From Bacteroidaceae bacterium (GTDB taxonomy: Bacteria; Bacteroidota; Bacteroidia; Bacteroidales; Bacteroidaceae): DNA of 64,000 bases. Position 1 is the stretch's first letter. The number at the start of each line of letters is the position of its first letter. Below are positions 33,331-33,822 of this stretch, one piece after another. The notes under the pieces are model-generated. The model did not search any database. It saw only the letters and a program-made list of their open reading frames with translations, and was not told the DNA's origin. Made by a program: the position numbers and the translations under genes. The DNA lies in contig JAZUMZ010000085.1 of assembly GCA_045603885.1 (NCBI GenBank), forward strand, positions 132-64,131, in the 5' to 3' direction.

Positions 33331-33423
33331 TTCACAAAAAGTGATCAGAAAGAACTCTTAGACAAATTCTGGCAAAGTCAATTTACGAATTTACGAAAAT
33401 ATATCAAAAAAATATGTGAAAAT

Positions 33424-33455
33424 TTTGTTGGTTTCAAAAAAAAATTATAATTTTG
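33424..33455 (+). promoter_or_regulatory. Bacteroidota promoter of island-A operon (-33 TTTG at 33424-33427, -7 TAATTTTG at 33448-33455)
   Basis: Both boxes are present with a 20-nt spacer. The same arrangement is conserved in the second copy at 48582-48612. Confidence 0.6.
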
Positions 33456-33461
33456 CATTTG

Positions 33462-33822
33462 ACTCAGTCAGCCCTGTCAAGGGTGAGTGGGTTATCTTAT
33501 TGGTAAAGGACGTTTACGAACGTTATCTTCTGATGTAGAATCTCGCAAATTCTTTGTAGCGGAAGAAACGCAACCGAAACGTCTGCGTTGGGTGTATTAT
33601 ACCCTGTCCATCAACACATTTTTATTATAGTCGTATTAATGTGCAAACTGGGCTCTCTATGTATAATATCCGCCGGCGTGGGCTGACTCGAGTTGCTTAT
33701 CCTGCTACAAGGCAATGCGAGAGCCCTACATCGGGATGAGCGAGAGTAGAGACTCCCACGTCTTTTTTATTCCTTATGTCTAATCGCTGAACCGGGGTGC
33801 GCAGCAGTAAAACTTATTTATC
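33462..33822 (+). ncRNA. Candidate structured ~360-nt 5' leader RNA, copy A (part of a ~430-bp duplicated element, 33383-33813 vs 48541-48975)
   Basis: Non-coding stretch between the predicted promoter and the first operon gene, roughly 85-90% identical by eye to 48619-48985. Several hairpins are retained in both copies (ACUCA..CCC/GGG..UGAGU, ACGUU/AACGU, AACGCA/UGCGUU, GGGU/ACCC, CACAUU/AAUGUG, GGGCUCUC/GAGAGCCC, UUGC..CCU/AGG..GCAA), plus a weak hairpin with a U-tract at 33748-33768. Confidence 0.45.

Follow-up and report, generated by a model that had tools for sequence, protein, structure and literature searches.

The stretch of DNA analysed here (the window) comprises 64,000 nucleotides (nt) from a Bacteroidaceae bacterium (GenBank assembly GCA_045603885.1, contig JAZUMZ010000085.1, positions 132 to 64,131 of the forward strand). 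It contains two copies, A and B, of a module made up of a promoter and a predicted structured RNA leader, each placed directly in front of an operon. An earlier note on this DNA had described the two copies as roughly 85-90% identical, each with a Bacteroidota promoter and a non-coding leader of about 360 nt, and had suggested that they encode a functional cis-regulatory RNA. The −33 TTTG and −7 TAnnTTTG boxes were located in both copies, and the leader was resolved into a conserved RNA of 308-312 nt followed by a spacer of 54-56 nt. The modules and the operons that they precede are as follows.

33383-33460, + strand: copy A, promoter together with the shared region upstream of it, 88% identity with copy B
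33424-33427, + strand: copy A, −33 box TTTG
33448-33455, + strand: copy A, −7 box TAATTTTG, TAnnTTTG type
33461-33768, + strand: copy A, RNA core of 308 nt that begins at the predicted transcription start (GACUCAG) and extends through the U-run (nhmmer, 310 bits)
33823-40933, + strand: cargo operon A, encoding a lipoprotein, an outer membrane protein (OMP) beta-barrel, hypothetical/TPR-like proteins, a DUF5106-thioredoxin protein and a Sel1 protein
48541-48617, + strand: copy B, shared upstream region and promoter, aligned with copy A
48582-48585, + strand: copy B, −33 box TTTG
48605-48612, + strand: copy B, −7 box TAAATTTG, TAnnTTTG type
48618-48929, + strand: copy B, RNA core of 312 nt (nhmmer, 315 bits)
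48986-52862, + strand: cargo operon B, encoding seven proteins of small or medium size that have no Pfam hits; the first carries a hydrophobic signal-like segment at its N-terminus and the last is Sel1-like

Alignment of the two copies with 100-nt flanks (MAFFT) showed that the similarity spans 33383-33822 and 48541-48985, starting abruptly at 33383/48541 (TTACGAATTTACG) and stopping about 7 nt 5′ of the start codons (ATG 33823 and 48986). The distance between the −33 and −7 boxes was 20 nt in copy A and 19 nt in copy B, and in both copies the conserved GACUCAG of the predicted RNA start lay 5-6 nt past the −7 box. The module was 88-100% identical end to end, the exceptions being the apical hairpin (67%) and an 8-bp helix, Pv, in which 2 of 8 positions were identical on each strand. 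Region by region, identity was 88% in the upstream and promoter segment, 94% from P1 to P2, 94% in the 5′ arm, 100% in the 3′ arm (71/71) and 91% from the tail to the ATG, so that the earlier estimate was right overall. When the 100-nt flanks on either side were forced into a global alignment, identity was at the background level of about 50%. The downstream genes are unrelated, as the earlier note had maintained, and encode signal-peptide or lipoprotein-type proteins. Two 23-26-mers from the element occurred exactly twice in the window and not once in 100 shuffles, and searching the 64 kb with an nhmmer profile returned copies A and B and no third. The scenario in which the similarity is merely the edge of a segmental duplication was excluded, because the same module stands before other operons in other species and because homology ends at the promoter and the ATG.

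The predicted anatomy of the RNA is given below for copy A, with the corresponding positions of copy B at the end.

33461-33493, + strand: P1, the 5′ hairpin (GACUCAG...UGGGUU), 97-98% of cells paired; in subtype 2 with inserts
33494-33504, + strand: linker, which contains UUAUUGGU
33505-33513, + strand: 5′ strand of P0, AAAGGACGU, which pairs with 33758-33766 and overlaps the 5′ half of P2
33509-33524, + strand: P2, hairpin GGACGUU-UACG-AACGUU, proposed antiterminator, mutually exclusive with P0 or the rod base
33521-33743, + strand: rod, consisting of a 5′ arm, a variable apical hairpin and a 3′ arm, about 70 bp interrupted by conserved internal loops
33531-33538, + strand: 5′ strand of Pv, UGAUGUAG
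33661-33704, + strand: near-invariant block of the 3′ arm, GTATAATATCCGCCGGCGTGGGCTGACTCGAGTTGCTTATCCTG
33726-33733, + strand: 3′ strand of Pv, CUACAUCG
33749-33757, + strand: tail motif, GAGACUCCC, proposed pseudoknot partner of the HP3 loop
33758-33768, + strand: 3′ strand of P0 (ACGUC) followed by U6, proposed terminator end
33786-33805, + strand: HP3, spacer hairpin GCUG-AACCGGGGUGCG-CAGC, its loop complementary to the tail; kept in all members but the LytTR group
48687-48694 and 48887-48894, + strand: copy B, 5′ strand (AACCCUUG) and 3′ strand (CAAGGGUU) of Pv
48822-48865, + strand: copy B, invariant block
48920-48929, + strand: copy B, 3′ strand of P0 and U-run
48948-48967, + strand: copy B, HP3, with the ATG at 48986

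P0 is a long-range helix (AAAGGACGU with ACGUCYUUU) that closes the rod and runs straight into the U-run. P2 and P0 use the same GGACGU, and the lowest helix of the rod (CGUU/AGCG) has for its 5′ strand what is the 3′ strand in P2 (AACGUU).

Sixteen distinct members of the family were collected from metagenome contigs and metagenome-assembled genomes (MAGs); loci are referred to by L numbers. When one genome per species was scanned for an exact 23-mer, a single MAG matched, Bacteroidaceae bacterium Tb.RUG.277 (L001), and a purine/pyrimidine-degenerate pattern returned nine metagenome contigs. Additional loci were reached through homologs of the CXXX-repeat radical-SAM maturase and of the TPR-like protein of operon A, and then by nhmmer profiles, which added the diverged members L015, L023, L024, L029, L032 and L034. 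Member searches relied on nhmmer profiles rather than on a covariance model of the full length (about 310 positions), and the exact 23-mer scan of genomes was too strict, so that both the size and the host range of the family are underestimated. Linked proteins and records carried the source names Prevotella sp., Alloprevotella sp. and Bacteroidaceae bacterium MAGs, and the sample labels of the members are presumably those of ruminant-gut data sets. Pairwise identity fell to 56-60% among the first twelve copies compared, and the members found later were more diverged still (nhmmer scores of 80-142 bits versus 277-333 bits). The RNA was 298-394 nt long across members. Five of them (L023, L024, L029, L032 and L034) form a second subtype with an additional hairpin between P1 and P0. 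All members had a Bacteroidota −33/−7 promoter ahead of the RNA; the −7 box lay 5-6 nt before the first base of P1 in 16 of 16 members, and sequence farther upstream of the promoter was unrelated between loci.

The upstream segment of about 78 nt that copies A and B have in common was not conserved in other species. Associated with it is a tandem pair of TTTACGAA (33382-33397 and 48540-48555), about 70-78 nt 5′ of the RNA start; the same motif occurs once more at 33513-33520, in the P2 loop region. An operator shared by the family upstream of the promoter was considered and rejected, since no conserved k-mer other than A-runs was present and the tandem TTTACGAA was confined to the two copies in the window. 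The tandem repeat, which is not found upstream of other members, could be a species-specific operator.

Folding analyses supported the predicted structure. Both copies folded singly into the same long rod (z −5.2 and −4.4); the value for copy B refers to a 377-nt stretch that includes the core (48612-48988, −121.4 kcal mol−1, z −4.4). The core of copy A had a minimum free energy (MFE) of −115.1 kcal mol−1 (z −6.5) on the + strand and of −90.9 kcal mol−1 (z −4.1), 24 kcal mol−1 worse, on the − strand. RNAalifold applied to 10 sequences predicted 80 pairs, 12 of which were changed on both sides. In this alignment 98.6% of the cells were paired, compared with 37-47% when the partners were slid by 1-3 columns, and the 12 pairs with both-sided changes compared with 2-4 after sliding. 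On all five measures, 0 of 500 shuffles reached the observed values. A set of 14 sequences, in which the unalignable apex was replaced by GAAA to give synthetic constructs used for alignment only, gave 97.9% paired cells versus 30-51% when slid and a covariation score of 0.334 versus at most 0.115.

Covariation was strong, also at the level of individual helices. Eleven sequence variants of Pv were found, all of them complementary, and all 7 of its pairs showed both-sided changes; Pw had about 10 complementary sequence variants. The helix UCUCGCA/UGCGAGA was invariant in subtype 1 and became CUUCGCA/UGCGAAG in subtype 2, which amounts to two compensatory pairs. G.U cells numbered 131 and A.C cells 5, which, together with the poorer folding of the reverse complement, identified the + strand, the strand of the promoter and the operons, as the selected one. 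These data supported the suggestion of a functional leader RNA: 16 distinct homologs were assembled, the covariation test proposed for it was run and passed, and the strand asymmetry, the fixed distance from the promoter and the lack of a second promoter before the ATG all added support. The conserved RNA is a covariation-supported structured domain in a predicted 5′ untranslated region (UTR), which is one of several features expected of a riboswitch. As judged from comparative sequence analysis, it represents an uncatalogued family of structured leader RNAs of Prevotella-like Bacteroidales that is real and well supported.

Two parts of the rod differed markedly in their conservation. Within the block of the 3′ arm, GGCGTGGGCTG and GTTGCTTATC, separated by 3-7 nt, were invariant in 16 of 16 members. 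A coding role was considered for this arm, but the only candidate, an open reading frame (ORF) of 26 codons at AUGUAUAAU in copy A, lacks its AUG in L001, L004 and L006, and coding does not account for the invariance. The near-invariant 3′ arm is likely a surface read by an effector, its partner strand changing only by wobble-compatible transitions. Pv, on the other hand, was wholly replaced between the near-identical copies A and B yet pairs perfectly in both, which may reflect drift under structural constraint, selection for copy identity or patchy gene conversion. An address code, in which Pv would pair with its own operon, was rejected: the longest complementary matches of its two strands averaged 7.0 and 6.4 nt for the own operon and 6.5 and 6.2 nt for other operons.

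In each member with a callable first long ORF, this ORF and the U-run were 36-80 nt apart, and no −7 box of the TAnnTTTG type was present in the spacer between U-run and ATG in any member. The tail motif (ACUCCC) pairs with the loop of HP3, which lies in the spacer before the ATG, and the two covary (AGACUCUC/GAGAGUCU in L015, GUCUCC/GGGGAC in L011 and AACUCCC/GGGAGUU in L007, L023 and L029). By this covariation the RNA is structurally tied to the downstream UTR.

Five to seven U residues directly followed P0 in 15 of 16 members and also in a shortened leader, L011, described below. P0 itself showed changes that preserve pairing: pair 6-226 changed from A-U to G-C in 3 sequences, and a U-to-C change in L005, L007 and L008 converted a G.U pair into G-C. 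The latter change broke an alternative local hairpin (AGAGAC/GUCUUU) that had been entertained as the terminator, and this candidate was rejected, as the mutation strengthens P0 instead. P2 behaved differently, its stem being constant in 16 of 16 members with a variable loop (UACG, UUCG, UUCUG or UUCAG). Folds forced to contain either P2 or P0 were predicted to differ by −6 to +6.5 kcal mol−1 out of about −115 kcal mol−1. In MFE folds of the growing transcript, P2 was present at first, was lost when the 3′ strand of the rod base was added, and P0 appeared at full length only.

The shortened leader lies at 5285-5485 of L011, in front of a CXXX operon of Prevotella sp., and is identical in L012-L014. 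It has a different 5′ domain and keeps P0, which is compact here and long-range elsewhere, as well as the U-run, the tail, the spacer (UUAUGUC..UAAUC) and HP3, while a 20-nt loop replaces P2 and the rod. Aligned with a rod-deleted version of copy B, it matched at 79 positions, compared with 67.8 ± 2.7 for shuffles. This architecture suggests that the rod was inserted, as a module, into a conserved expression platform.

The RNA was found in front of at least four types of operon: those encoding a ribosomally made, post-translationally modified peptide (RiPP) of the CXXX-repeat type with twin-arginine translocation (Tat) genes, those of the DUF5036/BACON-TPR-DUF5106 type, to which operon A belongs, a standalone LytTR regulator, and the operon of copy B. 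The operons outside the window are as follows; at L010 the contig ends just past the RNA.

L004, L005, L007, L008, L015, L023 and L029: Tat-signal, Cys-rich CXXX-repeat precursors, then TIGR04115 radical-SAM maturase, TIGR04119, TIGR04116, TatA and TatC
L001, L002 and L006: standalone LytTR-type protein, then exported proteins
L032 and L034: operon of DUF5036/BACON, phospholipase-like, TPR, ~300-amino acid (aa) and DUF5106 proteins
L024: protein of 454 aa whose N-terminus is signal-like, followed by CXXX genes

Operon A and the operons of L032 and L034 have the TPR-like, ~300-aa and DUF5106 genes in common and differ in the genes upstream of these. Export was the sole theme common to the cargo (CXXX-repeat RiPP/Tat, LytTR, lipoproteins, OMP, TPR, DUF5106 and Sel1). 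The rod was not obligatory at CXXX loci, being absent from L018-22 and L026-28 and replaced by the mini version in L011-14, nor was it present at the DUF5036-type loci L036-38.

The leader probably controls the transcription of the exported-protein operons that it precedes. As the most likely mechanism, a model is proposed from this anatomy in which the promoter and the structured 5′ leader of about 360 nt form a transcribed module that acts as a three-tier attenuator, or conditional terminator, of exported-protein operons. P2 would form first and serve as the antiterminator. Once the 3′ arm had been transcribed the rod would zip, and its base helix would take the 3′ strand of P2, thereby acting as an anti-antiterminator. 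The freed GGACGU would then pair with ACGUCC as the U-run was being made, transcription would stop and an RNA of about 310 nt would be released. If the rod were altered or P2 were held, polymerase would read into the operon, and the tail:HP3 pseudoknot would then form on the full-length mRNA. Either effect could be exerted by a protein or by RNA polymerase itself, or else by a small ligand that occupies invariant internal loops in the 3′ arm. Among the mechanisms listed in the earlier note, attenuation or a riboswitch-like mechanism would fit the predicted anatomy best; we believe and doubt the full model in equal measure.

Several observations weigh against it. P0 is modest, with 6 core pairs plus A-U pairs, and encloses about 280 nt, which is unusual for an intrinsic terminator; a consensus terminator scan of 33300-33900 returned no compact terminator. 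Covariation lends no support to the P2 stem itself, since that stem is invariant. The folding of growing prefixes describes equilibrium MFE and not kinetics, and in 4 of 14 members the full-length P2 state was level with the P0 state in energy or below it. The U-run of L015 is interrupted (UUUCUUC). The tail has alternative pairing partners in the 3′ arm (CGUGGG), in P1 (GUGGG) and at the rod base (GGGA), and other rearrangements are possible. Finally, no metabolic theme of the kind that points to the ligand of a riboswitch was found across the cargo, and no common ligand is indicated.

Other functions for the conserved RNA were weighed against attenuation. It might act after transcription, the rod and the pseudoknot setting mRNA stability or processing (through entry of RNase III or RNase E, or protection of the 5′ end) or translation initiation of the first gene. 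The long, near-continuous duplex does resemble RNase III substrates, and the ATG follows HP3 and the pseudoknot at a distance of 15-35 nt. Translation in Bacteroidota starts without a strong Shine-Dalgarno sequence and is sensitive to 5′ UTR structure. In Segatella (Prevotella) copri no ribosome-binding-site consensus was found (10.1101/2024.04.05.588293). A purely post-transcriptional role would nevertheless leave unexplained both the U-run placed exactly after P0 and the competing design of P2 and P0, and the LytTR group, which lacks HP3 and the pseudoknot, still keeps the rod, P0 and the U-run; we consider this role unlikely, though deserving of serious attention. A somewhat dimmer view is taken of a stand-alone noncoding RNA gene, some 310 nt long and served by a promoter and a terminator of its own, acting in trans as a small RNA (sRNA), a protein sponge or a 6S-like RNA, for which the operons would be neighbours or targets of read-through. 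6S and similar rod-shaped RNAs do act in trans, and the closed rod, the 3′ U-run, the defined length (298-394 nt), the RNA's own promoter and an invariant 3′-arm sequence such as a surface read in trans would have are all compatible with this proposal. However, the RNA always points to a gene that starts 36-80 nt past the U-run with no promoter motif between, the tail:HP3 covariation spans the U-run, the L011 leader retains the 3′ module without the rod, and two copies of one genome differ in their Pv helices. The terminated product could have a role in trans alongside a role in cis.

Processive antitermination, in which the nascent RNA, alone as in put and EAR or with a NusG-type factor as in the UpxY leaders of Bacteroides, modifies RNA polymerase to ignore terminators within long operons for surface proteins, would agree with the placement of the RNA at the head of multigene operons (4-9 genes) with exported products and with an invariant surface that could bind polymerase or a factor. 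It is less likely than attenuation, and improbable in itself: no Rfam antitermination family matched, no NusG/UpxY-like domain was present among the neighbouring genes that were scanned or had precomputed Pfam hits, the RNA is 3-5 times larger than put or EAR, and it also precedes a single small LytTR gene. Least credible, to the point of being barely worth entertaining, is a feature of the DNA without RNA function, such as a palindrome with an outward promoter resembling a miniature inverted-repeat transposable element (MITE), a recombination site or a recent duplication. A long imperfect palindrome does occur twice in 15 kb before unrelated genes, and the rod is missing from the otherwise homologous L011 leader as if by insertion or deletion. 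Against this, the 64-kb window holds two copies only, the G.U to A.C ratio of 131:5 reveals selection on one strand, and orthologous syntenic loci in different species hold diverged copies whose changes are compensatory. Conserved along with the palindrome are parts outside it, namely P1, the promoter and the tail, and no terminal inverted repeats or target duplications were seen at the borders of homology. No matches to the element were obtained in plasmid and phage collections (blastn) or in viral contigs (pattern scans), which argues against a mobile or phage origin.

A number of observations concern the surroundings of the family. Directly upstream of copy A, about 2 kb (~31409-33380) is without long ORFs, and on the − strand at 32552-33060 it contains pieces of a decayed gene, among them a Fic-like_C domain and, in another frame, a HATPase_c_4 domain (RecG C-terminal-like). 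A nucleotidyltransferase gene of the MNT type (48165-48479, − strand) abuts copy B, and MNT/HepT toxin-antitoxin-like pairs adjoin family loci in two more contigs (L011, 9543-10167; L034, 494-1151); such neighbours may be a coincidence or mark a common island border. A Sel1-repeat protein ends both operons in the window (40385-40933 and 52224-52862), and a Sel1-like gene also follows TatC in the CXXX locus L026 (8730-9377), which makes it a recurring final gene. In L004 the RNA is followed by a first CXXX precursor ORF (~2979-3010) that stops after 9 codons (MEKKKQNNE), with intact precursors farther downstream. Another leader of about 270 nt, nearly identical in L036 (885-1180) and L038 (175-462) and without likeness to this family, precedes the DUF5036/BACON-TPR-DUF5106 operon there and may represent a second class of structured leader.

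Comparison with Rfam 15 (4227 covariance models, gathering thresholds) agreed with the earlier statement that the RNA lies outside known families. The sole match in the whole window at gathering threshold was DUF805b at 52912-52944, outside the element. Copy A searched at E ≤ 10 returned noise (best score 23 bits against a threshold of 139.7 bits; Glutamine riboswitch 14 against 35 bits), and eleven member loci returned only a tmRNA elsewhere on them. The DUF805b motif (RF02914, 44.1 bits, + strand) comes right after operon B. Next to it, 52958-57218 holds two small ORFs of 67 and 76 aa as well as genes for a C39-peptidase ABC exporter and a radical-SAM protein, and the whole resembles a cluster for the export of a RiPP or bacteriocin. 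Retron msr-msd, IS110 bridge RNA and IscB/TnpB omega RNA were also considered; these readings fail because the adjacent enzyme genes that they require are absent, Pfam and NCBIfam scans of the flanks revealing no reverse transcriptase, recombinase or nuclease gene, and the HEARO model was silent. No described leader of this kind from Prevotella or Bacteroidales was found in the literature, the coverage of which was incomplete, so that an earlier description is possible. By membership the family is new, and its kind, the cis-regulatory leader, is already known.

Prevotellaceae dominate the rumen and many human gut communities, and to our knowledge almost nothing is known of RNA-based regulation in them. 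One leader wired to several exported-protein operons, including a radical-SAM RiPP system that has a Tat exporter of its own, as well as a LytTR regulator, implies a common signal acting on secreted factors, which possibly serve competition between bacteria. The proposed architecture is unusual in having a sensor rod within the terminator loop, three structures that compete for strands and a pseudoknot across the terminator, and the family is a ready candidate for Rfam. A bolder proposal, which we put forward tentatively and regard as more apt to fail than to hold, is that the family constitutes a new class of large modular cis-regulatory RNA. A rod sensor of about 220 nt in the terminator loop and a downstream pseudoknot would respond to a ligand or a protein and co-regulate secreted-protein, RiPP (CXXX-repeat/Tat) and LytTR operons in gut Prevotellaceae, and the 8-bp helix of free sequence may give each copy its identity.

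Among known RNAs, SrcF, a 272-nt intergenic trans-acting sRNA of S. copri (10.1101/2024.04.05.588293), is likewise structured, of similar size, from the same bacterial family and equipped with its own Bacteroidota promoter. Identity with SrcF or other ScnR sRNAs was rejected on reading the SrcF riboprobe primer ends (GTTGAACTTAATAAATAGAGGAGGAG; reverse CTATGCCTATGTTACATCATT, Table S5), which had no counterpart in the element. The intergenic sRNAs of S. copri are reported not to be conserved beyond the S. copri complex (10.1101/2024.04.05.588293). 6S RNA is also a rod in which internal loops are conserved, and it too has its own promoter and is U-rich at the 3′ end, but no 6S model matched, and the present RNA occurs in several copies per genome, each fused to an operon, lacks a large central bubble and varies in its helices. 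Like promoter-carrying MITEs such as the Correia elements of Neisseria, the module is a palindromic repeat that supplies a promoter to unrelated genes; it differs in its low copy number, strand-specific selection on RNA, a promoter and P1 outside the palindrome, orthologous loci and the lack of terminal repeats and target duplications.

Orphan large RNAs (raiA, OLE, ROOL, GOLLD and HEARO) and orphan riboswitch candidates are likewise large, highly conserved, covarying and phylogenetically restricted. The present RNA, of 300-390 nt, matches none of them in Rfam 15 and, unlike most of these, occurs strictly as a leader close to its promoter, with a putative expression platform. The put RNA of HK022, the EAR of Bacillus and the UpxY-dependent 5′ UTRs of Bacteroides capsule loci resemble it as leaders of long surface or exported operons with a surface that possibly addresses polymerase; the RNA described here is much larger, has its own terminator-like end with a U-run, has no NusG-like gene nearby and also precedes a single regulator gene.

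The closest parallel to the proposed mechanism is offered by three-tier attenuators, namely the PyrR-binding pyr leaders of Bacillus and, more loosely, T-box and riboswitch platforms. There, as would be the case here, the terminator shares its 5′ strand with an antiterminator whose other strand is captured by a third structure, and pyr-type attenuators likewise place one leader before several operons. The likeness is one of design, as the pyr-type attenuators have no sequence or Rfam relationship to this RNA. In the model proposed here the anti-antiterminator would differ from theirs in being a rod of about 220 nt held inside the terminator loop, the terminator helix would be long-range, and a pseudoknot would be added downstream.

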